This document shows, one piece after another, positions 17,749-61,802 of a DNA stretch of 64,000 nt. Source of the stretch: a virus (Duplodnaviria; Heunggongvirae; Uroviricota; Caudoviricetes); the IMG/VR virus record IMGVR_UViG_3300035210_000151. One strand, written 5' to 3'. The position numbers were made by a program, and so were the translations under genes. The stretch's first letter is position 1. Each line of letters starts with the position of its first letter. The notes beneath the pieces were generated by a model. The model worked only from the letters and a program-made list of their open reading frames with translations, was not told the origin of the DNA and did not search any database.

Positions 17749-18378
17749 ATGTTAAAACCAACAACCGTTGACGATCTCAATAAAATTTATCCACAGTATT
17801 CTTTTGTTAAGGAAGGTGGTAGTATTTATTGCTACGATGATGATCACTCTATTATTAAAGTAGCTGAGTGTGGTTATACGGATTATTTTGCTTTCTTCTC
17901 GATGACACACAAAATTTCACCTGAGCACTTTAAAGAAATTCAGACAGCCATTAAGCAAGTGCTTTCAGCTTATATCTTTTTTTGTTATCCTTTTTTTGAA
18001 GTTCAACGCCGACAGCTTTATCTCTATATGCTACAAAACCTTTATTGCAATAGAATGGTGATGAGCCAGCAGCTTGTTATTAATTATGTCACTAAATTCC
18101 ATGATGACACTATTTACTGGTCGCCAGAGATACAGATGGGTAATGATAATTTTTACTTACATTTAACTAACTATAACCAGATAAATGAATTCAATATCAC
18201 TATCACCGATCCGGTGGGTAGACTATTGAGTATTTCGATTACCGTTGATGAGATTAACAATAAACACAGTAAGCTCACTCACTTCTTTTTTGATACCATG
18301 TTACAACCTTATCTGGGTATTGAAGCGGGTGAACTTACGATGGATCATTTCAAAGTTATTGAGATGATGGTGGTTTAA
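17749..18378 (+). CDS. hypothetical protein with MxxI-type C-terminal tail
   Basis: ends ELTMDHFKVIEMMVV*. Confidence 0.8.
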   Translation: MLKPTTVDDLNKIYPQYSFVKEGGSIYCYDDDHSIIKVAECGYTDYFAFFSMTHKISPEHFKEIQTAIKQVLSAYIFFCYPFFEVQRRQLYLYMLQNLYCNRMVMSQQLVINYVTKFHDDTIYWSPEIQMGNDNFYLHLTNYNQINEFNITITDPVGRLLSISITVDEINNKHSKLTHFFFDTMLQPYLGIEAGELTMDHFKVIEMMVV

Positions 18379-19026
18379 ATGAATAGTAAATTGAATTTTT
18401 TGAAAAAGTTCCTAAAAAGCTCTCAATCTTTATTGTTGTTTAGCACGATTGTCTTTTATTTTTTTTCTATGAACTATCCAATTTATGAGAATACTGCTTT
18501 CAGAGTTCTAAACAATCTTAGCCTATTTTTAAGCATTTCATCTTTGATTATATTATTTCGAAAGGCTTTTATTAATTCATTGGCAATTAATATTACTTTT
18601 ATTGTATTTACATTTTTATTCTATGTTAATAGTTATTTTAAAATTATGGATACACATCTGTTTAATGTTTTTTACTTTTTTATGCTGGGTGTTAGTAATT
18701 TATTTATGAACCTGAAAGCCTTATTGTTCATTGTTGAAGCCTATAAAATTGAAGACGCAGAAAGGTTTCCAGTTTTCGATTGTATTGAATTGGATGCCTT
18801 TTTGTCTGATGACGATTTAATTTATTATACGCATGATCCTTATGCTCGTGAATTTGTTAAATTTAAAATCTATTACAGTAATTTTTATGCCTATGCTGGC
18901 AATATCTACTATGGTGGGCGAAACTATGATTTTTGGGATGTTAATAAATATATTCAAGAACAAAATATAGACATGAACCAATTGTCAGAAGATGACTTTC
19001 ATTTAATAGCTATGATTAACATTTAA
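18379..19026 (+). CDS. 4-TM membrane protein, family A, MxxI tail
   Basis: four hydrophobic segments; FPVFDCIE..DPY..F.KFK.YY; ends DDFHLIAMINI*. Confidence 0.8.
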   Translation: MNSKLNFLKKFLKSSQSLLLFSTIVFYFFSMNYPIYENTAFRVLNNLSLFLSISSLIILFRKAFINSLAINITFIVFTFLFYVNSYFKIMDTHLFNVFYFFMLGVSNLFMNLKALLFIVEAYKIEDAERFPVFDCIELDAFLSDDDLIYYTHDPYAREFVKFKIYYSNFYAYAGNIYYGGRNYDFWDVNKYIQEQNIDMNQLSEDDFHLIAMINI

Positions 19027-19173
19027 AGAGGACTTATTTACTCTTTTACTCGAAAACCCTGTAGACAACTGTTCATCTTTTCGGTTATAATAGACAGTGT
19101 TTAAAACAAGCATAAGCTTGGTTAAATTAATGATTTAAGACATACCACCTTTCGTTTATTTTGAGGATTAAAA

Positions 19174-19827
19174 ATGAACATCACACTTATTACTCAATTC
19201 CTAAAAAGCACTCATTTTTTGACCATTTCTATGGTTTTACTGTTTGCTGTGTATCTTTCACTGGTTACTTTTTCTGTACCAGCCTTTTCTTCCATTGTTT
19301 TTAAAATTGGTGTTTTTGTGGTGTTGGCTATTTCAATGCTCTCATTGTATAGCTTATGTCGAAAAGCATTTATCCACTCGAAAACTGTAAGCACCGTCAT
19401 TATTGTATTGAGTTTGGTATTCTACATTAATGAGTATTTACAAATTATACCTACTATTGCAACTCAAATTGTTTACCCTTTGTTCATGGGTATTTGGAGT
19501 TTGTATCTTGCGATGAGCGTTCTCTTTTTCAAAATGGAAGAACATAAAATTGAAGACAATTCTATTTTCCCAGAATACGATTGTATATCTATTGACCCCT
19601 TTGTTGAAGCTTATGATTTTGGTCAAAATCCACGGGAACCACTAGAATATGAGTTTGAACGGTTTACGATGTTTTATAAAAAAGCTTATGCGTCAAATGG
19701 CATTCTTTATTTGGGTAAAGAGAAATGTGATTTTTTTCAAGCTATTGATTATTTTAAAGAAGCTAAATCTGAAATTAATGAAATTTCTAGTGATGATTTT
19801 AAACTGATCACTATGTTTAATATTTAA
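19174..19827 (+). CDS. 4-TM membrane protein, family A, MxxI tail
   Basis: paralog (FPEYDCIS); ends DDFKLITMFNI*. Confidence 0.8.
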   Translation: MNITLITQFLKSTHFLTISMVLLFAVYLSLVTFSVPAFSSIVFKIGVFVVLAISMLSLYSLCRKAFIHSKTVSTVIIVLSLVFYINEYLQIIPTIATQIVYPLFMGIWSLYLAMSVLFFKMEEHKIEDNSIFPEYDCISIDPFVEAYDFGQNPREPLEYEFERFTMFYKKAYASNGILYLGKEKCDFFQAIDYFKEAKSEINEISSDDFKLITMFNI

Positions 19828-19838
19828 GGATGCCTACT

Positions 19839-20483
19839 ATGCGTCGTAATCTTAATTATCTATTCAAATTTATAACCAGCTCGCAATGTGTTATGCTGGC
19901 ATTGCCAATACTCTTACATGTGTATTTAATGTATTTCTATGACAAGCCTAATGCTTTATTCCTTATGGTCAATCAATTTACGATATTGATATCTTCATTG
20001 CCACTTCTATTGATATTTTTCAGAGCCTACAGTCATTCTAAGGTTGTTAGTTCTTGTGCGGTGTCATTAAGTATTCTCTTTTATTTGAATGCATATTTTA
20101 ATTTTATTGAAATCCATAACCTTACTGGAATTTATCTTTCATTGTTACTCTTTGGTTCTATTTTCATTTCGTTCAAATCTTTAACTGCTATTCAGGAAAT
20201 TCATCAAATTGAAGGATTGAGAAAGCTCCCTAAATATGACTGTATTGAAATATCAACTATCTCCAACTTTGAAGACTCTTACGAAAAATTAGATCCATAT
20301 CAAAAAAGCTTTACTAAATTTAAGTTTTACTACAAAAACTGCTATGCTTATGGTGGACAAATTTATTACAATGGTGAAAAACATGACTTCTCCAATGTCA
20401 ATAATTACCTCAATGAGCAGAAAATTGACATAAATCGACTAACATCGGACGATTTCAAGCTAATATCTATGATTTTTATATGA
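19839..20483 (+). CDS. 4-TM membrane protein, family A, MxxI tail
   Basis: paralog (LPKYDCIE..DPY); ends DDFKLISMIFI*; start may be 19830. Confidence 0.8.
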   Translation: MRRNLNYLFKFITSSQCVMLALPILLHVYLMYFYDKPNALFLMVNQFTILISSLPLLLIFFRAYSHSKVVSSCAVSLSILFYLNAYFNFIEIHNLTGIYLSLLLFGSIFISFKSLTAIQEIHQIEGLRKLPKYDCIEISTISNFEDSYEKLDPYQKSFTKFKFYYKNCYAYGGQIYYNGEKHDFSNVNNYLNEQKIDINRLTSDDFKLISMIFI

Positions 20484-25564: not shown

Positions 25565-26398
25565 ATGAAATGGTTAACTAAATATTTTAATAAAAAAGTC
25601 AATAATGAAGAATTATTTTTAAATCATTTAAAGTCAACCTATGATTTTGATGAAGCCTGCATAATTAAAAAAGATGACTCCGACTTTCTAAATATTATTA
25701 GGACTATTGCAACTTCAATTATTGTTCGTGATAATAGACCGCTTGGTATATCAACCGCCGATCCTGACAGCATTCAAGAACTTACTAACAAGATCCTTTC
25801 AGAATATGATTATTCTATTATAAAACTTTCACGTAACTACACAATGTCTAAATCGTATGATTATGCTTTGTTTTCAGAAAATGTTACTGGATATAGTATT
25901 TCATTTAAGTATTTAACTGATCGTAATTTGTTTGCCTCATTTCCTCATCTTGATGGTTTTGGATACTATTACAAAGAACTAATTAAGATAAGCAACTATA
26001 AATTCACGAATAATCAGCAACCTGCTTGTTTAAGACCCTCTTATTCAATTAGATTTCCATTGTTAAACAATGGTATGTTAGATGATTATAAAAGACCTTA
26101 CTATGTAAGACTAGAAACTGGTCATCGTGATTTAGAAGTTACTGTTGATATTTATGATGATGATAATAAAACTAATTATTGTGCTAAATTGTTTTATGGG
26201 AACACACTTTTAAAAGAAGAAAATTATAGTTCAATGAATGATTTTACTTTATTTTTAGATGAATTTCTATTTCCTTACAATTTAACAGAAACTATTATTA
26301 ATGAAGTTGGAATTCAATTGCCATTATCGTTTACACCAGATTTTGTAAAGTCCATGAACAAAGATTTTAAGCTTACTATTGATATGTTAAAGATATAA
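25565..26398 (+). CDS. family B protein, MxxI tail
   Basis: FLNHLK.TYDFDEA; FLFP; ends KDFKLTIDMLKI*. Confidence 0.8.
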   Translation: MKWLTKYFNKKVNNEELFLNHLKSTYDFDEACIIKKDDSDFLNIIRTIATSIIVRDNRPLGISTADPDSIQELTNKILSEYDYSIIKLSRNYTMSKSYDYALFSENVTGYSISFKYLTDRNLFASFPHLDGFGYYYKELIKISNYKFTNNQQPACLRPSYSIRFPLLNNGMLDDYKRPYYVRLETGHRDLEVTVDIYDDDNKTNYCAKLFYGNTLLKEENYSSMNDFTLFLDEFLFPYNLTETIINEVGIQLPLSFTPDFVKSMNKDFKLTIDMLKI

Positions 26399-26409: not shown

Positions 26410-27270
26410 ATGACAGACTTAGCCAGAAAGAAAAATTTAGAAACTTCAAATATAAAAGTCAATGAAGACCAAGAATATATTGAGATCTTTTTAAATCATT
26501 TAAAAAATGAATATGATTATGATAGTGTATCTCTTTATACTTTTCAATCACCATTTGAAAGTTGTCAATTAAATATTTTAGATGACGCAATAAACTCAAT
26601 AAGTAATATGGCGAATCGTTTTGACAATTATAAAAAATTAATATTAGAGTATTTTGATACTATTAAGATTGTCAAACTTACAAGAATTTATGAATTTCAT
26701 GAAGATAGTTATTATTTAATTATTTCAACTCAGTGTAATGTTAATGAATACACTATAAATTTATCATCTAGGTTTAATGATTTTGGTATTTTAAATTTTG
26801 AAAATGTTGATGATGAAAAATTTATTTATTCTTTCGAAGACTTTATGATTTATTTAAATTTTAAAATTAATCGTGTTTCTAAATTATGTCAATTTGAATC
26901 AGTTTTTATAGTTAATTCTAAAATCAATAATAAGCCACCATTTTTAATATATAATCATAAAACAAACTTTCATCTTCCAGTTTGTTACAATAGAAAAGCA
27001 CAAATAATTGTTAAAAGCACTAAAATAAACGAAATTGAAACATTGCTAGATTTAACACTTAATTTAAATAAAACGGTCATTAAGCATTGTTCATGTATTA
27101 TTAATAGTGCAGATTTAAATATCCAGATATTGATAGAAAGATTTATTTTTCCATTGAATGAATCTATTATTTTACTGAATGAATGGAATATTTATCCCCA
27201 ATTAACTTATGATTTCATGAATGTTGATTATAGTAATTTTTGGGATTTAAAAATGATGGTGCAAATATGA
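26410..27270 (+). CDS. family B protein, MxxI tail
   Basis: FLNHLKNEYDYD; FIFPLNE; ends NFWDLKMMVQI*. Confidence 0.8.
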   Translation: MTDLARKKNLETSNIKVNEDQEYIEIFLNHLKNEYDYDSVSLYTFQSPFESCQLNILDDAINSISNMANRFDNYKKLILEYFDTIKIVKLTRIYEFHEDSYYLIISTQCNVNEYTINLSSRFNDFGILNFENVDDEKFIYSFEDFMIYLNFKINRVSKLCQFESVFIVNSKINNKPPFLIYNHKTNFHLPVCYNRKAQIIVKSTKINEIETLLDLTLNLNKTVIKHCSCIINSADLNIQILIERFIFPLNESIILLNEWNIYPQLTYDFMNVDYSNFWDLKMMVQI

Positions 27271-27286: not shown

Positions 27287-28192
27287 ATGAAAGAAGGACA
27301 TGTATTCAGGTCGTTTACTGACACTGGTGATATCTATTCACAGCAAATACTGCAGAACAAGACACTTGAAAACTTTCTTTTGCATTTAAAAGAGTCCCTT
27401 GATTATGAGCAGGCTACCATTTATATTTATGACAACATAACTCAAAACTCAAAGGTTGACCTTGTTGAGAAGGCTATTAATTTTATATTAAAGGCTCGTT
27501 TCAAAAATAATATAGACTCTGATCAATATAGTCATTTTAAAGATAGATTATTTAACTACTCAGAAGTGATTCAGGTTGTTCAATTGACGCGAGTTTATAA
27601 TAGACATAAAGAATACCACTATTTATTTGTATCCAGTTATCTTGATGGTGATGAATTGAATATCATTATCCCTTCTGAATTAAATGAATGTTCTTTCTTA
27701 GGGGTTCCATCAATTAATATAAGTCAGTATCGAAAATATCCTAGCTATGATGATTACAACCATTTTGTTGAATTTAAAGAAGATAAAGTTAACAATAATA
27801 GAACTCATTTTCTTCAATCTGTTTGTGAAATAAACATGGAAATAAACTACTCCAGTCCTATTCTATCAAGCCGTCTTAAAACTACTTATGACGCTATCAG
27901 TTACGATAGAAAAGCCCAAGTCGTTTTAACATTATACCCACAAGATTATGAGTTTAACTGTGATTATGTTATTGATTTATCATTAATATACAAACAAAAA
28001 ACAATAAAAAGAACAGTTATTGAGCATCGTAGTGTAAACGATTTGGATAAAATCATTGAGAAATTCATATTTCCATTGGCTGAATCTTATGAACTTATTA
28101 ATGAATGGGAGTTAGATCCTGAATTGACAGCAGAGTTTATGTCACATGATTATGAATCTTACTGGGAATTAAAACAAATGGTGGAAATATGA
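27287..28192 (+). CDS. family B protein, MxxI tail
   Basis: FLLHLKESLDYE; FIFPLAE; ends SYWELKQMVEI*. Confidence 0.8.
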   Translation: MKEGHVFRSFTDTGDIYSQQILQNKTLENFLLHLKESLDYEQATIYIYDNITQNSKVDLVEKAINFILKARFKNNIDSDQYSHFKDRLFNYSEVIQVVQLTRVYNRHKEYHYLFVSSYLDGDELNIIIPSELNECSFLGVPSINISQYRKYPSYDDYNHFVEFKEDKVNNNRTHFLQSVCEINMEINYSSPILSSRLKTTYDAISYDRKAQVVLTLYPQDYEFNCDYVIDLSLIYKQKTIKRTVIEHRSVNDLDKIIEKFIFPLAESYELINEWELDPELTAEFMSHDYESYWELKQMVEI

Positions 28193-29127
28193 TAAAGGCT
28201 ATTTTAAATTTTATCAAGGGTAAAGAAAACTTAGTTCCTTTAAAAGATGAAGCTATGCCAGAACTTTCAATACTGGACGAAAGATTATCTAGATTAAATA
28301 AACATTTTATTTTACTAGACAAACCTTTAAAAAATCTATTAACTTTTCTGAAAGAAAAATATGATTATGATAGTGCTTCTTATTATTATTATTCACAACC
28401 ATTTTCTCAATATAATGAAGACGATCAGCTTTTTTTAAAAGAGGCTTTAGATCAAGCATATGCTAAATCTAGGACGCCTGAACTGCATTCTTTTGCTTTT
28501 ATTGAACTTAAACGATTTTTTGATAATAATCATAGTTCAAATATTGTTCCTATATACAGCTTTTTACAGAATGATGATATCATCAGAATTCTTCTTGATG
28601 GGATTGACATTAATTTAAATTTTCTAAGAATAAAAACCATTAATTTAAAAAACATTAATTTAAAAAACATTCATGGACGTAAATTTATTGAATACAGAGA
28701 GTATTATGATGATGACACAAATACAATGCCTTCATTTCAACACCTACAATCTGTTTTTAGTGCTGCAATTCCATTAAGAAATTCACCACCTATTTTAGAT
28801 ATTAATGATGCTCCTGTTACAGAAGAAGAATTTCTTAACTATAAAGATCGAGATGTTGAGTTGATCATTAGACGATATTTTGATAAAAACTCTATCGAGC
28901 ACTGTTCTATTGAATTGTTGAACAAAAAAGATATTATAAAATCCAAATTGATAAAAATGACTAATGAAAAAATTGATATTGATAAAGAGGTTGATGATTT
29001 TTTGTTTCCACTTCTAGAAACATCTGAATCGCTAGCTTTGTCTAATCTTACACCTGTATTTTCTAAGGACTTTATGTCGAATGATTTTTCAGATTATATT
29101 CTGTTAAAAAAAATGGAAGACATTTAA
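28189..29127 (+). CDS. family B protein, MxxI tail
   Basis: FLKEKYDYDSA; FLFPLLE; ends SDYILLKKMEDI*. Confidence 0.8.
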   Translation: MIKAILNFIKGKENLVPLKDEAMPELSILDERLSRLNKHFILLDKPLKNLLTFLKEKYDYDSASYYYYSQPFSQYNEDDQLFLKEALDQAYAKSRTPELHSFAFIELKRFFDNNHSSNIVPIYSFLQNDDIIRILLDGIDINLNFLRIKTINLKNINLKNIHGRKFIEYREYYDDDTNTMPSFQHLQSVFSAAIPLRNSPPILDINDAPVTEEEFLNYKDRDVELIIRRYFDKNSIEHCSIELLNKKDIIKSKLIKMTNEKIDIDKEVDDFLFPLLETSESLALSNLTPVFSKDFMSNDFSDYILLKKMEDI

Positions 29128-29511: not shown

Positions 29512-30615
29512 ATGGAGTTGTTTCTAATCGGCATTCCGTGTGCTTTCATCCTTCCATTGATTTGTAAATTCATTTTTCCACATGAAGTGACTGTGAAAGA
29601 ATATCTACTTGTCTCTTTCGTTAACGTTGTGTGTGTCACTGTGTTTTATTTTCTTATCAACCTTCATGCAACATGGGATACGGAAATTTGGAGTGGTCAG
29701 GTCACCAGTAAACAGTCTGCGAAAGTTTCCTGTGAGCACTCTTATCAGTGTAACTGCCGTCAACAACGTTCTGGCACTGACAGCAAAGGTAATGCAACTT
29801 ATACCACTGTGTGTGATACCTGTTATGACCATAGCTATGATGTTGATTGGCAAGTGGACAGTAACGTAGGTCGTGAACTTATTAATCGTGTTGACCGTCA
29901 AGGTGTAAAACAGCCTCCACGTTTCAGCAAAGTTGAAGTAGGTGAACCTTTTGCGACCACTCGTAGCTTCACTAACTATATTAAAGCCGCACCTGACACC
30001 TTGTTTGTTGAAGCGGCATCCATGAAAGATAAATATATTGGCAAACTTCCAGAGTATCCAGATATTTATGACTACTATCGTATCAATCGGGTTATTACGT
30101 TGGGTAAGGTCGGTGTTCCAGCCAATGATTTGAATATTATGTTGAATGAACAAATGCGTAAATGGGGGCCATTAAAACAAGGTAACGTGATTGCTGTCTT
30201 TGTCGATGATACTTATCAAGAAGACTTCTATCATGCCTTGCAGTCTCACTGGTTGGGTGGTAAAAAGAATGATATTATCGTGATTACTCAGGTTGATAGC
30301 ACTGGTAAAATCGGTTGGAACCGTGTATTCTCTCGGGCAGATACGGCAACCTTTGATAAATCAGTCGAATTTGACTTAACCGCCATGAAACAGTTTGACA
30401 ATGCTAAATATGTAGAAATTTTGAATCAGAACATTGGTGAACGCTTTCATCGGATGGACTTTGAACAGTTTAAATACTTGTTGGAAGAGCTGAAGCCCTC
30501 GACAACCGCATTGATTGTTGGTATAGTCTTTGCTCTTATCATCAACTTGGGTTTGAACTTCTTGATTGTCAAAGAAGACTTGTTCGGTGATGGTTTCCGT
30601 AGACGTTTTAGCTAA
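29512..30615 (+). CDS. membrane protein with Cys/His-rich extracytoplasmic domain
   Basis: 2 N-terminal TM plus 1 C-terminal TM; CEHSYQCNC...CDTCYDH; WLGGKKND. Confidence 0.8.
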   Translation: MELFLIGIPCAFILPLICKFIFPHEVTVKEYLLVSFVNVVCVTVFYFLINLHATWDTEIWSGQVTSKQSAKVSCEHSYQCNCRQQRSGTDSKGNATYTTVCDTCYDHSYDVDWQVDSNVGRELINRVDRQGVKQPPRFSKVEVGEPFATTRSFTNYIKAAPDTLFVEAASMKDKYIGKLPEYPDIYDYYRINRVITLGKVGVPANDLNIMLNEQMRKWGPLKQGNVIAVFVDDTYQEDFYHALQSHWLGGKKNDIIVITQVDSTGKIGWNRVFSRADTATFDKSVEFDLTAMKQFDNAKYVEILNQNIGERFHRMDFEQFKYLLEELKPSTTALIVGIVFALIINLGLNFLIVKEDLFGDGFRRRFS

Positions 30616-30639
30616 AAAAAGCCCTTCGGGGCTTGTTTT
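30614..30639 (+). terminator. terminator-like hairpin
   Basis: AAGCCC-TTCG-GGGCTT then GTTTT. Confidence 0.65.
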
Positions 30640-30677
30640 AAAAGATGTAAAAATCTTCAAAAAATGTAAAAAAACAA

Positions 30678-30706
30678 TTGCTACACAACGATTTACTTGC
30701 TATACT
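30678..30706 (+). promoter_or_regulatory. sigma70 promoter, extended -10
   Basis: TTGCTA-17-TATACT with TGn. Confidence 0.7.
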
Positions 30707-30747
30707 TATCACCTAACTTAAATAACTCTTAAAGGAGAGTAGAAAGA

Positions 30748-33704: not shown

Positions 33705-34721
33705 ATGATAACTACTAACAGTGATAGTTTAAAACAAACAGAAGAACCATTAACCATTAAAGATTATTTATTTATGTCATTCATGGCTGGTATGTTTATT
33801 TTATGTTTTTCTGTTCTTCTTGATAGTGTGATAACTTATCTTTTAGTTAATGCATTTGGCTATACTAATTTCGATTTAAAATTATCTGAATATACACAAA
33901 TTTCAGGATGGTTACTTGTTATGTTTATAATTGTCTCTTTACCATTTGCAATCTTGTTTAACGTCAAAACTATATACAGCATTATAATGTTTATAATTTT
34001 AGCGATATCCACTACTGTATTTTTTGTTAAATCAAGTGGCATGACGATTGAAAAATATGCCTATCAAGAATCTCTTAAACAATTTGAGAGTCAATATTTG
34101 CTGTCAGGTAACAAAGGAACAATGGCTTCTCAGCACTCAGATATGATTGATTTCTATGCTTATAAAGACAATAATCTTTTGAGTGAATCAATAAGACGTA
34201 ATTATTTCAATATATTATCGGTCACATCCACTAAGTTAAATGATATTTCTAAATATACGACTGTTTACAATTTAGGTTTTTTTGCTGACTATTTCCTAAG
34301 TAAACAGGACACTGATAAGTTTTTTATGGCTTATTCTGATGTTAAAGATCCAGAATTACGGAATGAACTTGAATCTATGATGAAAAATCCACTTATTAAA
34401 ACTTTAGACTATGCTGCATTTCATGCTAATTATAGAAAAAAGTTTGTTGAAAACAATGCTTCGCTCGTAGATCTTAAATTACCTGTATATGTAACAACAG
34501 AGACTAAACGTGTGAAAATGACTGACCTACAAAATATATCCAGTATTATTCATTTTTTTGATAACAATAAAGAACTTGCATTAACGTCAATAAAAACAGA
34601 ATTTGTGAACTTGCTTTCTCAACCTTCTATTTCTGTTGCTGATGTCGATCAATTTAGACATAATTTGACGACTGTGCTTAAATCAGATACAAAACTTTAT
34701 TCACTAATGTCTCAATTATGA
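33705..34721 (+). CDS. 3-TM membrane protein, family E, two copies of the soluble module
   Basis: ELESMMKNPLIKTLDY..F and EFVNLLSQPSISVADV..F. Confidence 0.8.
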   Translation: MITTNSDSLKQTEEPLTIKDYLFMSFMAGMFILCFSVLLDSVITYLLVNAFGYTNFDLKLSEYTQISGWLLVMFIIVSLPFAILFNVKTIYSIIMFIILAISTTVFFVKSSGMTIEKYAYQESLKQFESQYLLSGNKGTMASQHSDMIDFYAYKDNNLLSESIRRNYFNILSVTSTKLNDISKYTTVYNLGFFADYFLSKQDTDKFFMAYSDVKDPELRNELESMMKNPLIKTLDYAAFHANYRKKFVENNASLVDLKLPVYVTTETKRVKMTDLQNISSIIHFFDNNKELALTSIKTEFVNLLSQPSISVADVDQFRHNLTTVLKSDTKLYSLMSQL

Positions 34722-36937: not shown

Positions 36938-37660
36938 TTAAATAACCAACATTTCAATCACTTTTAAAGCGTCTTTTGTTCTTCTTGGTATATTGTATTC
37001 TGATTTAAGATACAAGTCATAGAAGCAGTGTTCAAAGGCTTCAAAATAGGTTTTCGTCAATGATACCATCTTACTTGATTCACTAACATGTCCGTTTAAC
37101 GTTTTCTTTATCTTTTTATGATAATCCAAAGTAATCTTATTATCATTATTATCGTTTAAGTTAATGGTTAATTTCACAGTTCTTTCGTTAAAATGAAAAA
37201 TAACAGTATACTCAATTCTATCTTTATTAGAGTTCAGAAAAATACCATGCCTTCTTGATAGAAGAGCGTTTACCATTTCTACAGCGGTTTGATATTGTAT
37301 ATTAGGATCAATAATGAATAGATTTTTCAAAGCATATTTTTCAACAACATTAATAAATGATTTTTTCATGTCATTCAGTTCTTTATGTTGCAATAAATGC
37401 ATTGAAATATTAGTTGTCATATTATAAAGATTTATCGTGTGTTTGTCTGCGTTATAGACAACTTTAAGTATATCTCCATAGTGTGTCATGATCTTAAACT
37501 CAATCGACACAGTAGTAATTCCACGAATTTTTTTGTCAATCTCATAATTTTCAAAGAATAACCACGGATCGAATATTTTTCTTAGCTGGTCATATATTAG
37601 TGTGATTTGTTCAGTATCTTCCATATAGACAAATCTGACTGGGAGTGGTTGTATTGTCAT
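36938..37660 (-). CDS. hypothetical protein, MxxI tail
   Basis: ends KDALKVIEMLVI*. Confidence 0.8.
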   Translation of the reverse strand: MTIQPLPVRFVYMEDTEQITLIYDQLRKIFDPWLFFENYEIDKKIRGITTVSIEFKIMTHYGDILKVVYNADKHTINLYNMTTNISMHLLQHKELNDMKKSFINVVEKYALKNLFIIDPNIQYQTAVEMVNALLSRRHGIFLNSNKDRIEYTVIFHFNERTVKLTINLNDNNDNKITLDYHKKIKKTLNGHVSESSKMVSLTKTYFEAFEHCFYDLYLKSEYNIPRRTKDALKVIEMLVI

Positions 37661-37670: not shown

Positions 37671-38300
37671 TTAATACTTCAACATTTCAATTGTTTTCAA
37701 ACTGTCAGTATCAAATTCTTTAATAGACACCATTGATTCTTGGGTATATCGTTTAACATCTTCAACTGAAATATTTGTGCCCTTCACACCTTTATTATCA
37801 AATTTAATTCCATTATTGATGTAGGTATACAATTCATCTCGAAATTTAATTCTTCTTTCTTTTTCTGATTTAAACAAATTCAATAGATTAAAATCTTCAA
37901 GATATATAGTTAAATCTGGCTTAGAGTCATAATCTTTGATAAACTTGTTATCTTTTAACAAATCGCTTAGAAATTTTGAATCCATTGCAAATAAAGTGAT
38001 TAGAGCAACGGCCATAATAATGCTTGATGTCACACCAAAATCATATTTAGCTTGACCAATTCCAGAGCAGACACACATAACTGTCAGCATAATTTTATTT
38101 CCGATGCCTCTTACTATGATAGCCTTTGAAAGTAGTACCATAATATACGGGTACAAATTTCCTAGTATTATAGCAACACCAATCAATGCCATGTATTTGT
38201 TTTCAGCATAGTGGTAATACCCATACGTCGCAAAGACACCTAATAGTATCATGAACAGGTAGGGCTGAAAAATAAATGCCATTTTCATTTTAAAATTCAT
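37671..38300 (-). CDS. 4-TM membrane protein, MxxY tail (family A-like architecture)
   Basis: four TM segments; ends DTDSLKTIEMLKY*. Confidence 0.8.
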   Translation of the reverse strand: MNFKMKMAFIFQPYLFMILLGVFATYGYYHYAENKYMALIGVAIILGNLYPYIMVLLSKAIIVRGIGNKIMLTVMCVCSGIGQAKYDFGVTSSIIMAVALITLFAMDSKFLSDLLKDNKFIKDYDSKPDLTIYLEDFNLLNLFKSEKERRIKFRDELYTYINNGIKFDNKGVKGTNISVEDVKRYTQESMVSIKEFDTDSLKTIEMLKY

Positions 38301-41127: not shown

Positions 41128-41877
41128 ATGCGAGTTCGAATTGATTTAAAAACAGTCAAGCTTATTAAAACATTCAACCCGCATGTTGACGTGAACGCTT
41201 TATATTTGCCAGTAGAAAACGTTTTTGAAGAAAGAGATGCCTCTGTTAGAACTAAACAATTGACTCGTAAAAAAAGCATCCAAGAAGAATATGACTTCAT
41301 CTATTTTTATGCCAAAGAGAGCTTCACAAATTTTAAAATTGTCAGTGACAAAACAACTTATTATGTGATTGTTGATAGTATTGTGCTGAGTGTTCCCCAT
41401 GACTTTGAAGTAGACTATGGATTCAGTCTTCATAAAATGTTGGTAAACGATTATGAAAATCAAACCAAGCATGTAGATAACATGTTAAAAGCGGCTTACA
41501 TCAACCTTTACATGTCAAAAGAACACAATGTTTCTAAGCATGTTTTCAAAAGTCTATTTATTGATTTTTTTACATCTAAAGCTTTTAATGAGCGTAAAAT
41601 CTTGGCTGGTGGTTCTTTGAACCGTAATTTTGTCTGTGAATTAACTTATCTTGGACATAAGTTTTCATTCTCCACATTTTCAGCCTCATCAGGTGTTTTG
41701 GTTGAGTTTAACTTTCCAGAATTTAAATTTCGAAAATGTTACCCAATCAGCTCTTACAATATAGATAAATTCATTCTTGATTTTGTCAATGAATCCGAGT
41801 ATAATTGTAAATCTACGAAGGAAGCTACCCAGCACCTTAATGATTATATCTTAATCCGTAAAATGATGAACATTTAG
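41128..41877 (+). CDS. hypothetical protein, MxxI tail
   Basis: GGAG before MRVRID; ends NDYILIRKMMNI*. Confidence 0.8.
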   Translation: MRVRIDLKTVKLIKTFNPHVDVNALYLPVENVFEERDASVRTKQLTRKKSIQEEYDFIYFYAKESFTNFKIVSDKTTYYVIVDSIVLSVPHDFEVDYGFSLHKMLVNDYENQTKHVDNMLKAAYINLYMSKEHNVSKHVFKSLFIDFFTSKAFNERKILAGGSLNRNFVCELTYLGHKFSFSTFSASSGVLVEFNFPEFKFRKCYPISSYNIDKFILDFVNESEYNCKSTKEATQHLNDYILIRKMMNI

Positions 41878-42880: not shown

Positions 42881-43627
42881 ATGAAAGCTAAAACACCGAT
42901 GAGCGTCATGAAATCAGAAATCGACAAATTGAAGGAATTTCCTTTGCTGTCGTTCTTTGGTCTTAATGGCCGTCCAAAAAACTTTATTGCTTTGGGTAGT
43001 GAAGACAATCGTGAAGTGATTGTTGTCAATCCAGTGACGTTTGATTACATGGCCGTTTATGGCATTCTTGGTGAAGTTTGTCACAATGAGAAAGGACATG
43101 TTCGTCATACTCGTAGTATTGCTTTGTGCTTCAACTACAAGACCGAAGAAACTGTTCGAGCGAGTGTCGTGCTCAGTAAAGAAGGACAGGTTGAATATTC
43201 AAAAGAATACACTGTTCCAGAATTTAAGGTTTTGTTGAAAGCTTTTGTTGAAAAAAACAAAGAGTGTCATGACCATTACATGCTGATGGAAAACTTTATT
43301 GCTACATTTGGTATTGTGGTGAGTTCTTCTTTATCACGCTCTGAAATCAACCAGATTAAGGTTGCTTATGTGAAGCAAGTGACTGGCCTTCGTGATGCTA
43401 TCCGTCATGCAGAGAAGAAGAAAGTAACGATTAATCAAAGTATTCGTGATTCGAAAACAGAAGAAGAAAAAGCGATTTACATTCAGCGTCTTAATGAGTT
43501 GAAAGAAATGATCAAAACGGCTAATGCTGACATGGTTAGAATTGTGAAACATGATTTTAAAAATATGCCTGCCGACGCTCGTAAATATTTCTTTGAAACA
43601 CTCAAAAAAGAAATGATTTGCTACTAA
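42881..43627 (+). CDS. hypothetical protein with C-terminal coiled coil; possible MxxY tail
   Basis: ends FFETLKKEMICY*. Confidence 0.75.
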   Translation: MKAKTPMSVMKSEIDKLKEFPLLSFFGLNGRPKNFIALGSEDNREVIVVNPVTFDYMAVYGILGEVCHNEKGHVRHTRSIALCFNYKTEETVRASVVLSKEGQVEYSKEYTVPEFKVLLKAFVEKNKECHDHYMLMENFIATFGIVVSSSLSRSEINQIKVAYVKQVTGLRDAIRHAEKKKVTINQSIRDSKTEEEKAIYIQRLNELKEMIKTANADMVRIVKHDFKNMPADARKYFFETLKKEMICY

Positions 43628-45087: not shown

Positions 45088-45138
45088 ATTGACTTTAAAA
45101 TAAAAAACTATATGATTGTTATTTTAAAAGGACATATA

Positions 45139-45921
45139 ATGACTCTTTCAAAACATGCATGTTATTTGGACAACGATCCAAATTCTACTGACCCGCCAGA
45201 ATATTTTATACCGGGAGCAACTTCAGTTCCTGTTATTAGAGGAAAATATACAAAATTTCGAGAATCACAACCATTAGATAATCGAAGGCGTGCTATTAAA
45301 ACTTTTTGTCTTAACGATTCTGTCGATTTATTTGCTTCTTTATTGTTTTCAAATGAAGTGTTTTCAATAGATTTTTATGACGCTGTAAAAATAATATCTT
45401 TAATAGATGAAAGTATTGATAAATTTAATTACAATGAATTGAACGTTCATTTAAGGTTTTTTTTAGATGACGATGGGTCTTATTCATTAAGGCATAAACG
45501 TTTTTTAAATCATGACTACCACCCTTTTTGTTTTGAGAACAATATATCATCTGTTGTTAGTGTTATTTGTGAAGAAAATTTAAATCAATCAAACGCTAAT
45601 ACTTTATTTAAAACTCTATTTAAAAATCGCTTTCAACTGACCGATTGCACCACAAAGAAAAGGTATACTGAGACTATTTATCTTGCTGAGCATCGTTTTT
45701 ATATTGATGTCACTGTTAATTGTGATTTAAATGATGCCATAGTTCCATTAGTTATCGCTTATGATGAGTTTGGTGTTTTGTATACTGACTATTATTATGA
45801 CCATCAATATATTGCACCTTACATTTTAAAGGCTATTAAACCTTCTTTTGATGAAAAAATAGTTAATTCCGACTATTTTAACCAGAATGAAACGAATGCA
45901 CTTAAAATGTTGTGGATGTAA
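45139..45921 (+). CDS. family D protein, MxxM tail
   Basis: IVPLVIAYDE...YYY..QYI......IKP....YFNQ matches 57479/60091/60942; ends NETNALKMLWM*. Confidence 0.78.
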   Translation: MTLSKHACYLDNDPNSTDPPEYFIPGATSVPVIRGKYTKFRESQPLDNRRRAIKTFCLNDSVDLFASLLFSNEVFSIDFYDAVKIISLIDESIDKFNYNELNVHLRFFLDDDGSYSLRHKRFLNHDYHPFCFENNISSVVSVICEENLNQSNANTLFKTLFKNRFQLTDCTTKKRYTETIYLAEHRFYIDVTVNCDLNDAIVPLVIAYDEFGVLYTDYYYDHQYIAPYILKAIKPSFDEKIVNSDYFNQNETNALKMLWM

Positions 45922-48238: not shown

Positions 48239-49006
48239 ATGATCAGTAAAGGCTTCAAAGATAAAGTTAAAGAATTGCTCTATCTTTATTATAATATTCA
48301 ATGTGATAGGATTATCCATTCTTCTGATTATTGTTATTATATTAACGCCAAAGACAAATTAGGAGAGACACTTTATTTAACACTGGAACTTTATGGTAAT
48401 GAATTTGATAATTCAACTCCATCACTTTTTCAGGTGTATATTGATGCTGATGATATGGTTAATCGAAGACTGTTCAGGCTTGATAAAATTCAAACGGCTC
48501 TTAATAAATCTTTGGATTTTTTAAAATATGTAAAATCAACAAGAATTACTTCTTTTAAATTAGATAGCAACACCACAAACTATGTGCTTCTTTCTGGTGG
48601 GTGCTCTATGGGTCGTAGTTATTTGAATATTACCTACACAATTCCTTACTCGAAAGAAAATGGATTTAGTTTGTTTGTAGACAAAAATATTCATAAAATT
48701 GCTGAAATTGGAATGCAACACTTTGATTGCCAATTTAAAATATTTGATAACGCTAAAACTACTGTTTCAAATAATTATTTGACCGATTTTTCGTTTAACC
48801 TAAAAAATGATGAACAATCGGCATTAGATGACTATATCTTAAAAATTATTGTTTCTTATGACTTATCCATTCACCTTCACAGTGACAATTTTAGTAATCT
48901 GGATGTCGCTGACTTTTTTTATAGTTTGAAATACAGTCTTATTTCATACGATAATATTGAATATGTAAAAGATTTTTACACAGTTATCAATATGATTGAA
49001 ATTTGA
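48239..49006 (+). CDS. hypothetical protein, MxxI tail
   Basis: ends KDFYTVINMIEI*. Confidence 0.8.
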   Translation: MISKGFKDKVKELLYLYYNIQCDRIIHSSDYCYYINAKDKLGETLYLTLELYGNEFDNSTPSLFQVYIDADDMVNRRLFRLDKIQTALNKSLDFLKYVKSTRITSFKLDSNTTNYVLLSGGCSMGRSYLNITYTIPYSKENGFSLFVDKNIHKIAEIGMQHFDCQFKIFDNAKTTVSNNYLTDFSFNLKNDEQSALDDYILKIIVSYDLSIHLHSDNFSNLDVADFFYSLKYSLISYDNIEYVKDFYTVINMIEI

Positions 49007-50963: not shown

Positions 50964-50974
50964 TTGAGGAATAT

Positions 50975-53516: not shown

Positions 53517-54293
53517 ATGTCACTGTTTGAAACCTATGAAAAAAGCAAAAGCATGGTTTCGCTGAGTGCGGAGCAATGCTTGTACTTTAAAAATGTGCTT
53601 GTACAAAAATTATCACTTATCAACAATAATTCCTTGCTTAGATTTGAACATCTTTATAATCGTCTTCATTTTTTTGAGAATAAAACCACTGTCTACGATT
53701 TTACAGAAAAACAAAAATTAGGTATTTCATTATCTTATCGTCTTGATAACATTAATGTTTCAATGTACGTTTATGTTAATTTTGATGATAATGGTGTTTT
53801 TAGTTGTCTTTCTTATCCAACAATGCGAATAGTTGATAAAAATATTATCACACTTTTACATTTATTTAAGTCAAGCCACAATGGAATAGCTTTGACTTTT
53901 AATCCATCCGAATTAAATTCAAATTATATTATTGATATTTCAGGTGTTTTTTTGTTTGATCATAAGTTTGATTTTAAATTAGATTTATTTTATTATTTTT
54001 CGGAACATTTAATCACTGATCAACATTATGTTAGATATTGTAATAGAGGGGCAATTAAATTAACAGTAGATACCTTTAATGACATTGAATCCGAATATTT
54101 GTATATTGATTTTGTTAATTTGTTATATTCAGGTAATTCCTATTTTTTAAATTCTTTTGTCAAGACACCCATCAATTTTTCATCACTTAAATTATTTAAA
54201 AAAAGCAGACACTTATTTGATATGATTTTGAACAGTCCACACAAAGAAATTTTGTTAGATGAATTGAAAGTCTATGATATGGAAACTTATTAA
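53517..54293 (+). CDS. family C protein, MxxY tail
   Basis: SL...Q...F...L...L..+NNNS; I.F.N..Y.....F+NSFV...+NF; ends DELKVYDMETY*. Confidence 0.8.
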   Translation: MSLFETYEKSKSMVSLSAEQCLYFKNVLVQKLSLINNNSLLRFEHLYNRLHFFENKTTVYDFTEKQKLGISLSYRLDNINVSMYVYVNFDDNGVFSCLSYPTMRIVDKNIITLLHLFKSSHNGIALTFNPSELNSNYIIDISGVFLFDHKFDFKLDLFYYFSEHLITDQHYVRYCNRGAIKLTVDTFNDIESEYLYIDFVNLLYSGNSYFLNSFVKTPINFSSLKLFKKSRHLFDMILNSPHKEILLDELKVYDMETY

Positions 54294-54356: not shown

Positions 54357-55562
54357 ATGTCACATTCACGCATTGATACGTTGGCTAATGTTATCCATTT
54401 GGCTCCCTATATTGATTCATTTAACTTCAACCGAATGGAACCAGTGCGTGATGTTGGTGATATGAGTTTTTCAACTCAATATTTTGCTAGCTCACGTTAT
54501 GACACCTTATCTATTATTTTTCCCAGCTTTCAAGAAAGCTTGCGGTTTATGTTTTCTGACTTTAAGGATTCAGAAATTAAAATGATTGATTCGGCTCTTC
54601 AATTTTATCTTCGACTATTCCCTTATGACCCTTTATTGGACGCTATGAAAGATCCTGTTACAACAGTCTATATGCATAAACGAGATGATTCATTTCTGAT
54701 GAAGTTTAAATGCTTTTCTATTGCGTATCGCTATAATGAATGGATCTTCCAGATTAATGACAAGTTTAATAAAGATAGATGTATGTTAGCAATGACTTAC
54801 GATGAGCTTCATATGGCTATACTGAGTGCGTTTGAGGCAATGTTTAAGGATATCTTCATGAACCATTCATTGATTGTTGATAATAATATTGTTAATGCAG
54901 TGGCTTCCAATCAAACCAACTTTGCTTTCTCAACAATGCGTTATAGTCATACCTTTACGCATGAAAGTGATATGGATTTTGCCATGCACATTAAAAAATA
55001 TAATAAATTTAGGGTATTTGAAGATCGCATAAGTAACGAACATGTCTTTAATAAAGATGAAATGTGTGTGATTGGTAATTTTACTGTTGAAAAGAATATT
55101 ATGAGTGTTGCAAAACTATCTGAAACTCAGATTACCATTCACAATGAATCGGTTCATTTGTTAGACCATTTATTTAAAGTTGCTCTAAGACCATCAGAAC
55201 TTGATTATTTGAAAAAAACACTAGAATTGATGCGTCTGTCTGATAGTTGCTATCCTAATCAAAAGGATACAAAAATTAAGATTGTTCGTTCAAACAACAG
55301 TAAGAAAACTATTTTTAATTTGATTACAGAGCGATGCCCTTTCACTTTCAGAACTGGCCGACACTGTATTACGATTGGGGCTTATATTTCTGTAGGGATT
55401 TATATTGAAGATGAATACACTTCATTGAACCTACCTTCTTTTGAAGCGGCTTATGAAGTTTGTTATGATAAGTTTATTACTCATGTGAGTAAGACATTAG
55501 ACATCAAACCAGAAGATGTGACTGACCTTCATTTTAAAACACTTGAAATGTCTAATTATTAG
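54357..55562 (+). CDS. hypothetical protein, MxxY tail
   Basis: ends DVTDLHFKTLEMSNY*. Confidence 0.8.
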   Translation: MSHSRIDTLANVIHLAPYIDSFNFNRMEPVRDVGDMSFSTQYFASSRYDTLSIIFPSFQESLRFMFSDFKDSEIKMIDSALQFYLRLFPYDPLLDAMKDPVTTVYMHKRDDSFLMKFKCFSIAYRYNEWIFQINDKFNKDRCMLAMTYDELHMAILSAFEAMFKDIFMNHSLIVDNNIVNAVASNQTNFAFSTMRYSHTFTHESDMDFAMHIKKYNKFRVFEDRISNEHVFNKDEMCVIGNFTVEKNIMSVAKLSETQITIHNESVHLLDHLFKVALRPSELDYLKKTLELMRLSDSCYPNQKDTKIKIVRSNNSKKTIFNLITERCPFTFRTGRHCITIGAYISVGIYIEDEYTSLNLPSFEAAYEVCYDKFITHVSKTLDIKPEDVTDLHFKTLEMSNY

Positions 55563-55571
55563 GAGAGTATT

Positions 55572-56390
55572 ATGATTAGCGAGATGTTTCTTTTTGAAAA
55601 ATTTAATATTAGTTCTTTAAAAACTTCATTAACTGACAAACAGGTGGCCTCTTTCACTAAAAAATTGATTGTGATGCTACTTAAACTTAATAACAATAGT
55701 GAAATTACGATGGACTATTTGGTTAACAATTTAAAAATCGTAGAAACAGAAAATAAATTTAGTAAGAATGATAATCCTTCACGTCCTTTTATTTTTATTG
55801 ATACGGCGTTTATGTTGGGTGATACATTGATTCCAGTTAGAATTTCTGCTGAATTTTGTAGTGAATATTCTAGGTGGCCTTTATCTTATAACAAATACGA
55901 AATAACATTTCAAAAAACGGATAATTCTAGTTTGTTTTCTTTGTTTAATATGTATAAACCTAGCATTGGTACGAGTTCTTTTTATTTGGGTTCATTTAGA
56001 GATGATGCTGTTTACACAGTGTTCACAAAAAATGTTTTTAAATTTCAGCATTATTTTGTTAAAACAACTCGTAACAGGTTTCACATCGAATACACAATAA
56101 AGAAAAACAAAGTTGAATCCAGTCAAATTATTGATGATGAGAACGATGAGTACTTGAAGTTTGATAATAAAATACTTTCAGCCAATGATGAAACATTGTT
56201 TATCCATTTTGCGAATGCGGCCTACACCAAAGAATCTGACTTTGTAAACTCTTTTGTTAGAGACAGTGTTAATTTTAAAGACATGAAATGCTTTGCTCAG
56301 CTTAAAAAAATGTTTTTAGATATTTATACAGGTGAACAACGTCAACGTCTTATTGATGAATTGCTAATCTTTCAGATGGTTGATATTTAA
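55572..56390 (+). CDS. family C protein, MxxI tail
   Basis: paralog of 53517; ends DELLIFQMVDI*. Confidence 0.8.
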   Translation: MISEMFLFEKFNISSLKTSLTDKQVASFTKKLIVMLLKLNNNSEITMDYLVNNLKIVETENKFSKNDNPSRPFIFIDTAFMLGDTLIPVRISAEFCSEYSRWPLSYNKYEITFQKTDNSSLFSLFNMYKPSIGTSSFYLGSFRDDAVYTVFTKNVFKFQHYFVKTTRNRFHIEYTIKKNKVESSQIIDDENDEYLKFDNKILSANDETLFIHFANAAYTKESDFVNSFVRDSVNFKDMKCFAQLKKMFLDIYTGEQRQRLIDELLIFQMVDI

Positions 56391-57478: not shown

Positions 57479-58369
57479 CTATTTAAACATTGCCATGTCT
57501 AAGAAATCAATATCCCTTTGATCAAAATAACTAACTTCGTTAAAGGCTTCATTCAGCAAATTAGGCTTTATTTGATCGATTAAAGCCGCAGGTACATACT
57601 TATTTTTGTAAAAATAATGAATTTCTGTTGGCTGATTATTTTCATCCGTTATTACAATGGCAGGTGTTATCTTGTCTTGATTAAAATTAACATGTATGTA
57701 GACAATGATGTTTAAATTAAAATAATGATAGCATTTTAAATGCTGTTCTTTATTTTTATTGTCGCTGAGTTCATTATGAAATGTCCTCATAAAAAAATTG
57801 TTATTTATCGGTATGAACGTTGCATTTTTGTATTGAATAACGCTAGGCTTTGTTTGATCATAATAATAAGAAACCTTACCATTCTCTAATTTTGTAAATA
57901 CTTTTTCGGATATCAAAACAGCATTCTTATTGCCAATAAGAACGTCATCAAACCTTAATCTCACTCTCATTTTTTCGTCATCTAACTCGTCCAGATATTG
58001 CTCAACTTTTTCATAGTCTTCAAAATGGAACGCTGTTAGATTATCATTAAACAAGATATCTTTAAATTCAGTGGCATCAATATTTTTTTTATATTTAATT
58101 TTTCTTTGTGTTCCGACATAGTTGTTATATCGTGGAATTTCGTTATGTAATTCATCTTCAACATTAATAGGTTCATTAATCATTACAGGTAATTGGATGA
58201 CCGTTTCTAAATTGAACTCTTCTTCGTATTTGTTTTCTGGTGAGACATATATATCTCTCTTTTCTGGTTGGCTTTTAATTATTGTGACGGTTCCATCATC
58301 CCCGATAAATTCAATGGGTGATTCGTAAGTTACCAAAGAAATGTTTTTGATAATGGTGTGTTTTGACAT
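57479..58369 (-). CDS. family D protein, tail with one extra residue
   Basis: MSKHTII; PAIVITDE; ends RDIDFLDMAMFK*. Confidence 0.8.
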   Translation of the reverse strand: MSKHTIIKNISLVTYESPIEFIGDDGTVTIIKSQPEKRDIYVSPENKYEEEFNLETVIQLPVMINEPINVEDELHNEIPRYNNYVGTQRKIKYKKNIDATEFKDILFNDNLTAFHFEDYEKVEQYLDELDDEKMRVRLRFDDVLIGNKNAVLISEKVFTKLENGKVSYYYDQTKPSVIQYKNATFIPINNNFFMRTFHNELSDNKNKEQHLKCYHYFNLNIIVYIHVNFNQDKITPAIVITDENNQPTEIHYFYKNKYVPAALIDQIKPNLLNEAFNEVSYFDQRDIDFLDMAMFK

Positions 58370-58445
58370 GAAAGTCTCCAAAAATATTTTAAATAATAGC
58401 ATAATAAAACCATAAAGTCTATTATTATCATTCGCTCACTCAATC

Positions 58446-59165: not shown

Positions 59166-59252
59166 TATAATCCTTTATTAATCTTAAACAGGTCTTCTGT
59201 TTTTAGTGTTTTTGTGGTATAATACCATTATTAAAAACAGGAGATTTCCTTC

Positions 59253-60041: not shown

Positions 60042-60060
60042 TCATTAAAAAGCAGATACA

Positions 60061-60092
60061 AAAAAGCCTGATTGATTTCAGGCTTTATTTTT
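60061..60092. terminator. bidirectional terminator
   Basis: AAAGCCTGA-TTGATT-TCAGGCTTT. Confidence 0.7.
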
Positions 60093-60927
60093 AAATCCTT
60101 ATCATTTCTAAAAACTCAATATCTCTTTCATTAAAATAACCAAACGCTTTAAAATCTTCCAGTAATATGTTAGGTTTTAATACATTCATTATGTCGGGCG
60201 TGATGTATTCATTTTTGTAATAACAGTGAACCTCTAATACAGATCCTTTCATATCTTCCACCACAACAGCAGGAACCACCTTGTTTTCTTCTGGATTAAC
60301 GGTTGTATATACTTGAAGACTAAGATGACTGTAATGATGTAATTTTAGGTAGGTTTCTTTACCTTGTTCGAATACATTATGAGCATGCTTTGAGATTGAT
60401 GTTTCACTTAATTCTATATATTTACTTGGGTAATTTTTATAAAAATAAGGTACTAACATTGAATCTTTGTCTAAGTTGAATGACTTTTCTACTAATCTCA
60501 TTTTACCTTTTCTTGATATAAACTTAATATTCATTATCAAATTGTCATGAAAGGGCATTTTATTAAACCATTTATGAAAATGGGCTTCATCTTTTTCGTC
60601 TAACTCAATAGGATAATGGGTGAATAATATTTCTCTAAAATTTTCAGTGTTGATGCTGCCTTTGTATTCAGGGATTATTATGTTTTCTTCATATTGATTA
60701 AATTCAGGTTTTGGCCTTTCAATAGGATCAACACTCATACTGTTTTGATAATACTTTGTTTTGAGTCCTGTACTGAAAAGGTTAGCCATAAGATTACGCA
60801 ATGTCGCTGCATCAGCTTGGGCAAATGGGTTTATCATGTTTGACAACTTGGTGTCAAAGAATGAATTATAGTCAAAAGCTGGTGTAATCGTTATTGTGTG
60901 TTTTGATGTTTTTTTCATAATTAGCAT
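60091..60927 (-). CDS. family D protein, MxxI tail
   Basis: SKHTITI; PAVVVED...EVHCYYKN; ends RDIEFLEMIRI*. Confidence 0.82.
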   Translation of the reverse strand: MLIMKKTSKHTITITPAFDYNSFFDTKLSNMINPFAQADAATLRNLMANLFSTGLKTKYYQNSMSVDPIERPKPEFNQYEENIIIPEYKGSINTENFREILFTHYPIELDEKDEAHFHKWFNKMPFHDNLIMNIKFISRKGKMRLVEKSFNLDKDSMLVPYFYKNYPSKYIELSETSISKHAHNVFEQGKETYLKLHHYSHLSLQVYTTVNPEENKVVPAVVVEDMKGSVLEVHCYYKNEYITPDIMNVLKPNILLEDFKAFGYFNERDIEFLEMIRI

Positions 60928-60941
60928 CCTATTCTTATTTC

Positions 60942-61802
60942 TTAAATCATTACCATGTCTAAAAATTCTATATCTCTTTTATTAAAGTAGTCAGGATCAT
61001 TAAAATTTTCTGATAATATGTCAGGTTTCAATTCACTGATTGTTTCGGGTCTGACGTATTGGTTTTTATAATAACAGTGTACTTCAAGCGGACGATCACC
61101 AAGATCCGTTACGACAATAGCGGGAACAATCCTTTCCATCACTGGATTTTTGATTAATTTAACAAAAATGCCTAATTCATTGTAATAATGTAACTCCATA
61201 TAGCATTGTTTAGTTTGATGGTTGAATACATCATTACTGTTAATGGTCGTTGTGCTTTTGCACTCAATCATGCTGGGTTTTGTTTCATCAAAGTAGTAGG
61301 TTAATTGTTCGTCCGTGATCTTTAAGAATTTTTTGCTTTTAGCATAAAATTTTTCGGATGATTGTATAAATTTAAGGTGAACTATCATGTCTTCGTTATC
61401 AACTGAACTGTTCAGCATGTCAAGAATCGTAGGCTCATCACTTTCAAGTGAGATAAAACTATTGCTATACAAAAATTGTTTGAATTGAGCATTATCAATG
61501 TTGGTTATATGGTCATATTTCTTTTCATTTTGCGGATAGCTATTAAACTTTGGAAAAGAATCAAGCCATGAATCAAATAAACTGGTGTTTACTGGGCTAG
61601 GGTTAGTAGACAGCCTTGGCATATTTAATATCGGCAATGAAAACGTAGATTTACTTCTTGGTTGTACCACACCATTTTGAACACTTTGACTTAAATTAGG
61701 CTTGGGATTGTTCCAAAAATATGCAGGTGCTGGCACACCGAATGTAAGTTGATCCACATCCCACTCAAATACGCTATTTATGATTATTTTGTGTCTTGAC
61801 AT
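60942..61802 (-). CDS. family D protein, MxxI tail
   Basis: MSRHKIII; PAIVVTD...EVHCYYKN; ends RDIEFLDMVMI*. Confidence 0.82.
   Translation of the reverse strand: MSRHKIIINSVFEWDVDQLTFGVPAPAYFWNNPKPNLSQSVQNGVVQPRSKSTFSLPILNMPRLSTNPSPVNTSLFDSWLDSFPKFNSYPQNEKKYDHITNIDNAQFKQFLYSNSFISLESDEPTILDMLNSSVDNEDMIVHLKFIQSSEKFYAKSKKFLKITDEQLTYYFDETKPSMIECKSTTTINSNDVFNHQTKQCYMELHYYNELGIFVKLIKNPVMERIVPAIVVTDLGDRPLEVHCYYKNQYVRPETISELKPDILSENFNDPDYFNKRDIEFLDMVMI

Follow-up and report, generated by a model that had tools for sequence, protein, structure and literature searches.

A stop-anchored C-terminal tail on many families of orphan proteins in a lineage of likely megaplasmids

Known C-terminal peptides and the pMEGA elements

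Adaptors of AAA+ proteases can be tethered to their machine through the C-terminus, as in SspB, whose tail binds the N-domain of ClpX. The present study concerns a C-terminal tail with Met at the fourth position from the end (-4, the last residue being -1) on many proteins encoded in a 64,000-nucleotide stretch of DNA (the window), filed in IMG/VR as a Caudoviricetes virus (IMGVR_UViG_3300035210_000151). The carriers of this tail would resemble SspB-type tethers in combining a variable target-binding body with a short C-terminal peptide docking on one machine. However, one or a few such adaptors are present per cell and their tail is extended and partly basic, whereas here dozens of families carry an acidic, predicted helix with a fixed Met.

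The signals of Dot/Icm substrates, including a hydrophobic terminal signal and the E-block, are likewise C-terminal, combine hydrophobic with acidic residues, and occur on many unrelated proteins of one system (PMC10025392). Those signals follow no strict consensus or register and are carried by enzymes of all sizes, whereas the tail described herein is register-locked, Met-specific, and carried by orphans of 170-320 amino acids (aa). The clamp peptides of gp43, gp33, and gp55 in phages T4 and RB69 also form a short terminal amphipathic plug with hydrophobic residues spaced i, i+3, i+6 (PMC6212786). Those peptides belong to replication and transcription proteins, whereas the tail described herein is absent from enzymes of this type and present on membrane proteins. 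By analogy only, the poxvirus F-box/PRANC ankyrin proteins are also expanded, fast-evolving substrate-binders with one constant C-terminal docking module; these proteins belong to the eukaryotic ubiquitin system, and no relation in sequence or fold is expected.

The element itself is likely a pMEGA-like megaplasmid, because some relatives sit on contigs as long as 1.85-1.92 Mb. The pMEGAs are megaplasmids of Enterobacteriaceae with a size of 1.33-1.58 Mb and a GC content of 26-29%, marked by common core subfamilies (T4SS, Rep, relaxase) and tRNA arrays; all encode DotL and IcmW of the Dot/Icm system, and pMEGA4 encodes ClpA, ClpP, two ClpS, and three FtsH proteins (PMC12633466). The elements under study are similar in megabase size, low GC content, mostly hypothetical genes, and tandem multicopy families, as well as in genes for SlyB, AcrAB-TolC, FtsH-like and Clp proteases, and NAD metabolism. 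However, the relatives observed here reach 1.9 Mb with 31-34% GC, and the best runs are peat metagenomes. The term "C-terminal" does not occur in the main text of the pMEGA paper (PMC12633466), and no published description of the tail was found in full-text searches of a literature collection with few subscription journals.

A tail anchored on the stop codon

Among the 69 non-overlapping open reading frames (ORFs) of at least 80 aa in the window, 20 have Met at -4, compared with 0-5 at each of the nine remaining positions among the last ten; at a background Met frequency of 2.3%, approximately two cases are expected by chance. All 20 tail sequences listed in an earlier note on this DNA were recovered as quoted; for two of the ORFs, a start several codons upstream of the coordinate given there is possible (19830 for 19839 and 45112 for 45139). 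The estimate of about 20 tail-bearing proteins largely stood: genuine tails are found on 18 carriers and, with one extra Lys, on the protein at 57479. The ORF at 42881 (42881..43627, +; score -4.4 with the leave-family-out profile described below), which the earlier note had added with reserve, and that at 33705 (33705..34721, +; score -5.7), which it had not listed, probably have Met at -4 by chance, because their profile scores are poor and Met is kept in only two of four and two of six family members, respectively. The window carriers sort into 10 groups by sequence.

The motif comprises approximately 14 residues, [D]-x-h-x-[VL]-h-[ED]-M-h-x-I-stop (h, hydrophobic), and its profile fits hydrophobic-x-x-Met-x-x-hydrophobic at a free C-terminus. 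The claim that codons vary and that selection is on the peptide was borne out, with codon variation at -1, -5, -6, -7, -10, and -11 and no base conserved past the stop. Among the 20 largest of 51 families of direct repeats, the sole one overlying tails links paralogs of one family. A stop-anchored motif at the peptide level, common to many sequence families, both soluble and membrane, is supported.

Three related records of 162-193 kb (G001-G003), whose gene content overlaps that of the window, have Met at -4 in 59 of 264, 53 of 225, and 62 of 247 ORFs (22-25%). When paralogs were collapsed, by clustering all 805 ORFs, trimmed of their last 45 residues, into 293 families, a majority of members had Met at -4 in 40 families, compared with 3-9 families at other positions; for the 197 families present in at least two records, the numbers were 32 and 1-5. 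A 14-residue stop-anchored profile, applied leave-family-out, called 151 of the 805 termini, compared with 0.12% of 45,552 internal sequence windows, and 164 termini reached at least 4 bits in register, compared with 0-3 after a shift of 1-5 residues. The profile seeds were picked on Met at -4 and a hydrophobic end, so these two columns are circular and the other columns independent. In family-weighted tails, hydrophobic residues are found at -7 in 86%, -9 in 78%, -6 in 76%, -3 in 78%, and -1 in 89% (the last used for the seeds), and acidic residues at -5 in 53% and -11 in 43%. The tail-bearing families form 22-23 profile-unlinked groups among 28 families, to which 28 body families in a held-out record are added.

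This held-out record (G004; 181 kb, 31% GC) was reached through a DNA pattern scan of viral contigs, which gave 46 loci. Of these, 12 came from tail-rich records, one of which led to G004, while at the remaining 34 unrelated viral loci none of 230 ORFs scored with the profile. Only 14 of the 188 ORFs in G004 match the training records. Met is at -4 in 45 of them, and 43 score with the training profile, compared with 0-1 after shifting; one of these tails had been selected by the pattern scan and the others were unselected. The 43 scoring tails belong to 28 body families, and BLAST matches in the training set exist for only two. The profile thus predicted tails in a distant, held-out record. 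With a looser DNA pattern, whole-record counts of 20, 14, 9, and 3 were obtained in four family records, compared with 1-2 in 33 unrelated virus records, each of which had been chosen for holding at least one match. Two records found through the family of the gene at 49137 contained 46 and 31 matches, compared with 7 and 7 for the reversed pattern, and a third contained 9 compared with 1; these are pattern matches rather than confirmed gene ends. Given the held-out and whole-record pattern and profile counts, the motif is a trait of this lineage of elements.

In G001 (169037-180847), 14 paralogs of a single carrier family lie in tandem, with a Sir2 gene breaking the array, and 13 of the 14 have Met at -4. 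In addition, a membrane protein that is 18379-like by eye (L088:10496-11257, -) has a degenerate tail, without Met and one residue short, and would be a natural loss-of-tail variant. Three additional residues come after a tail-like helix in a 414-aa protein (L083:7780-9024, +), which is a rare case of extension.

The carrier proteins and the possible reader of the tail

In the window, the first carrier is a soluble singleton of 209 aa ending ...DHFKVIEMMVV (17749..18378, +; profile score 16.4), next to a paralog trio of multi-pass membrane proteins of 215, 217, and 217 aa (18379..19026, 19174..19827, and 19830..20483, all +). A soluble alpha/beta protein of 286 aa (26410..27270, +) has paralogs of 301 aa (27287..28192, +) and 312 aa (28189..29127, +) as well as a distant soluble family member of 277 aa (25565..26398, +; hhalign probability 98%). 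Soluble orphans of 240 aa (36938..37660, -; profile score 21.7), 249 aa (41128..41877, +), and 255 aa (48239..49006, +) were also observed, together with a Tyr-terminal membrane protein of 209 aa (37671..38300, -). The soluble alpha/beta protein of 258 aa at 53517..54293 (+) has a paralog of 272 aa (55572..56390, +), and between them lies a soluble orphan of 401 aa, the longest carrier in the window (54357..55562, +). The family of the 286-aa protein at 60942..61802 (-), relatives of which are found on contigs of 0.77-1.92 Mb, includes a paralog of 278 aa (60091..60927, -), the paralog with one added Lys and hence Met at -5 (57479..58402, -), and a member of 269 aa with a weak tail, ...LKMLWM, that is stronger in orthologs (45112..45921, +).

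The carriers are narrow in size, with 90% falling within 170-320 aa compared with 35% of other ORFs (84% in G004). None of 71 scanned carriers (21 from the window, 17 family representatives, and 33 from G004) reached the curated Pfam cut-off. Consistent with the statement that recognisable enzymes lack the tail, no annotated protein among those scanned scored as a carrier: one exonuclease has Met at -4 but a profile score of -8.7, and no tail was found on the nucleic-acid enzymes of these records (DEDDh exonuclease, UvdE, RNA ligases, and methyltransferase). Counted by crude hydropathy, at least one membrane segment is present in 11% of carriers and at least two in 10%, compared with 28% and 11% of non-carriers. 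The carriers are thus soluble or multi-pass and seldom resemble signal-peptide proteins, and the rarity of a single hydrophobic segment points to a cytoplasmic reader.

Met283 and Ile286 of the 26410 protein are invariant across 33 aligned relatives, and Met283 of the 60942 protein across 17 aligned sequences; in a third alignment of 31 sequences, with a mean column identity of 29%, Met is at least 90% conserved. In all three alignments this Met is among few near-invariant columns. Among 1.84 billion representatives, the profile of the 53517 family had only 26 matches, including a clearly unrelated one, and Met at -4 was kept in 14 of the 15 full-length relatives viewed. AlphaFold models of the 26410 and 53517 proteins predict the tail as a terminal helix (residues 275-284 and 243-257, the latter in a model with a predicted local distance difference test score, pLDDT, of 92). 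The bodies had been described as unrelated, and this holds at the sequence level between two soluble families (hhalign probability 0.3%); in contrast, their models have a similar order of elements, and part of the carrier set may, on these models, be one hyperdivergent old superfamily.

Herein, we propose, with a probability of about 0.4, that the tail serves to dock the carriers on a single cytoplasmic partner, for which an AAA+ machine is the likeliest candidate. The last ~14 residues, a predicted helix ending Met-x-x-Ile-COOH, would be a common docking handle; the carriers, dozens of rapidly evolving binding modules that are probably not enzymes, would use it to plug into this partner, most likely an AAA+ unfoldase or protease encoded by the element. 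A pocket on the partner would read the free carboxylate, Ile at -1, Met at -4, and the hydrophobic residue at -7, while each body may recognise a different target, such as host defence or competitor proteins. In other words, the carriers would be interchangeable adaptors whose heads vary and whose tether stays the same. A Met at a fixed distance from the carboxylate, in a helix whose hydrophobic face is broad, suggests selection by a binding pocket, and the lack of enzyme domains together with the narrow size suggests binding modules rather than general cargo. An AAA+ hub is named as the likeliest partner because AAA+ machines read terminal peptides and such machines are present. The candidates in the window are an AAA ATPase of 923 aa (11475..14246, +) and an FtsH-like protein of 949 aa with AAA and M41 peptidase domains (14239..17088, +), upstream of the first tail array, and G004 encodes a ClpA/ClpB-type ATPase; such genes are common on these elements, so their presence weighs little. 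A more specific version, in which hundreds of exchangeable target-binders dock on one AAA+ protease of the element and send host defence or competitor proteins for destruction, as a bacterial counterpart of F-box proteins, is tentative and rather unlikely. Virion packaging, a role considered in the earlier note, is improbable, because approximately 10% of carriers are predicted to be membrane proteins of the multi-pass type and the element resembles a megaplasmid.

The tail might instead be the substrate signal of a Dot/Icm-like (type IVB) secretion or conjugation system of the element, with the carriers as cargo for recipient or neighbouring cells; this is the main rival reading, and we regard it as rather doubtful. 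Effector sets of Legionella resemble a repertoire of hundreds of AT-rich orphans, and the Dot/Icm signal of RalF has a hydrophobic residue at -3/-4; hydrophobic residues also lie near the C-terminus here, with Met at -4 and hydrophobic residues at -3 in 78% and at -1 in 89% (-4 and -1 being seed-selected), and the tail region is mildly acidic, with a mean charge of -1.6 over the last 30 residues. However, no Glu-rich block lies upstream of the terminus, only single acidic positions at -5, -11, and -15; the size range is narrow, and no enzyme or toxin domain is found on the 71 scanned carriers. DotL and IcmW are encoded by every one of the similar pMEGA elements (PMC12633466), and type IV secretion signals are C-terminal, including hydrophobic and Glu-rich types, although variable and poor in consensus, unlike the fixed register of the tail (PMC10025392). 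A DotL-type coupling protein (PF02534) was not found in five related fragments of 181-437 kb, from elements that reach ~1.9 Mb. Moreover, ART-PolyVal, a protein typical of those transferred, ends in a basic tail. Lys-rich C-termini are found on 60 of 799 non-carriers, compared with 1.4% of internal sequence windows, and the ART-PolyVal protein of G004 is among them. Proteins of this type are predicted to travel with DNA (PMC5512222); the Lys-rich end on such a protein suggests that export may use a tail other than the Met tail, and this end is possibly the true transfer signal. Lys-rich ends often finish hydrophobic and are observed on larger proteins, several in G004 and, in the window, those at 3252-4241, 14239-17088, 49137-50963, and 50975-52693, the last three judged by eye.

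Alternatively, the carriers may constitute one or a few hyperdivergent superfamilies in which the tail is an ordinary last helix packed on its own core or on a dimer interface, with no outside reader, which we consider unlikely. A degron read by an FtsH-like or Clp protease of the element, or by a host protease, and keeping the proteins short-lived, is less probable again. FtsH and Tsp are known to recognise non-polar C-termini as degrons, FtsH accepts substrates from the membrane as well as soluble ones, and the first tail array is closely preceded by the FtsH-like gene; however, the known non-polar degrons are, to our knowledge, compositional and need no Met at a fixed place, and no recognisable regulator or enzyme has the tail, contrary to what one would expect of a tag for general turnover. 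It is very improbable that the tail acts as an RB69 gp43-type sliding-clamp-binding peptide, tethering carriers to the DNA clamp. Peptides of this type fill a hydrophobic pocket on gp45 (PMC6212786), but the nucleic-acid enzymes named above are without the tail and multi-pass membrane proteins have it. The clamp family PF02767 is absent from the five related fragments, for which gp45/PCNA profiles were not searched.

Several points weigh against the docking handle that we favour. The two soluble families have a similar predicted architecture despite no sequence similarity, and their terminal helices are modelled at a pLDDT of ~90, as expected for a packed structural helix. The choice of an AAA+ machine rests on the availability of such machines, the partner being inferred. 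The fragments read represent 10-25% of elements reaching ~1.9 Mb, and the reader or a coupling protein may lie elsewhere. Finally, the definition of the Lys-rich tail is weak, and many bacterial proteins have a basic C-terminus.

Gene content of the element and meaning of the tail

The window has a GC content of 33% and mostly contains genes without annotation or family; no tRNA was found in it. An AcrAB-TolC-type pump, an NAD kinase, an RNA ligase, and a cytidine deaminase are encoded, together with a lipoprotein labelled SlyB-like on a glycine-zipper match. The best plasmid matches of AcrB are copies from Pantoea and Rahnella, at 60%. The genes for the AAA ATPase and the FtsH-like protein (11475-17088) overlap, each with a long N-terminal part of unknown nature, and distant matches of the ATPase are found on Variovorax 800-kb plasmids (34% over the AAA part). 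Of the 24 runs listed, eight contain at least half of the words; all eight are peat metagenomes of 2020, two of them flagged as possible sources, and they may come from one campaign. No genome with a relative was found in GTDB genome scans.

A gene pair at 29512-31350 (phrog_2087 and phrog_1383) had no blastn match among E. coli genomes, and the first gene matches 497 phage records at below 60% identity; this pair may explain the filing of these fragments as viral in IMG/VR. Another pair, at 49137-52693 (608 and 572 aa, no Pfam match), is kept across distant elements, and its first gene, with three copies in G004 and two in G041, is usable as a lineage marker. Three similar intergenic stretches (34787-34822, 46660-46695, and 59202-59237) contain TGNTATAAT, which we take to be an extended -10 promoter consensus. 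A perfect 6-nucleotide tandem repeat at 33556-33645 encodes a Thr-Gly run in the ORF at 32833-33699 and is also present in G001. Host-like genes of G004 include those for several aminoacyl-tRNA synthetases, GAPDH, a thioredoxin reductase-like protein, asparagine synthase, RtcB, a Pnkp-like ligase, and a Clp ATPase, and a TrpRS-like synthetase is encoded in G002.

In the readable parts of these elements, one 14-residue motif, which lies outside all family libraries, marks at least a fifth of the coding capacity, and the DNA pattern of the tail is usable as a marker to find such elements. C-terminal docking and address tails are already a known kind of signal; an army of exchangeable adaptors with one constant tether would be categorically new. 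The tail is a single handle on a large block of unannotatable genes, and naming its machine could give hundreds of orphans a shared role. Should the partner prove to be a protease, the tail would belong to a bacterial system of programmable degradation; with a secretion system as partner, it would be an export tag of unusual precision.

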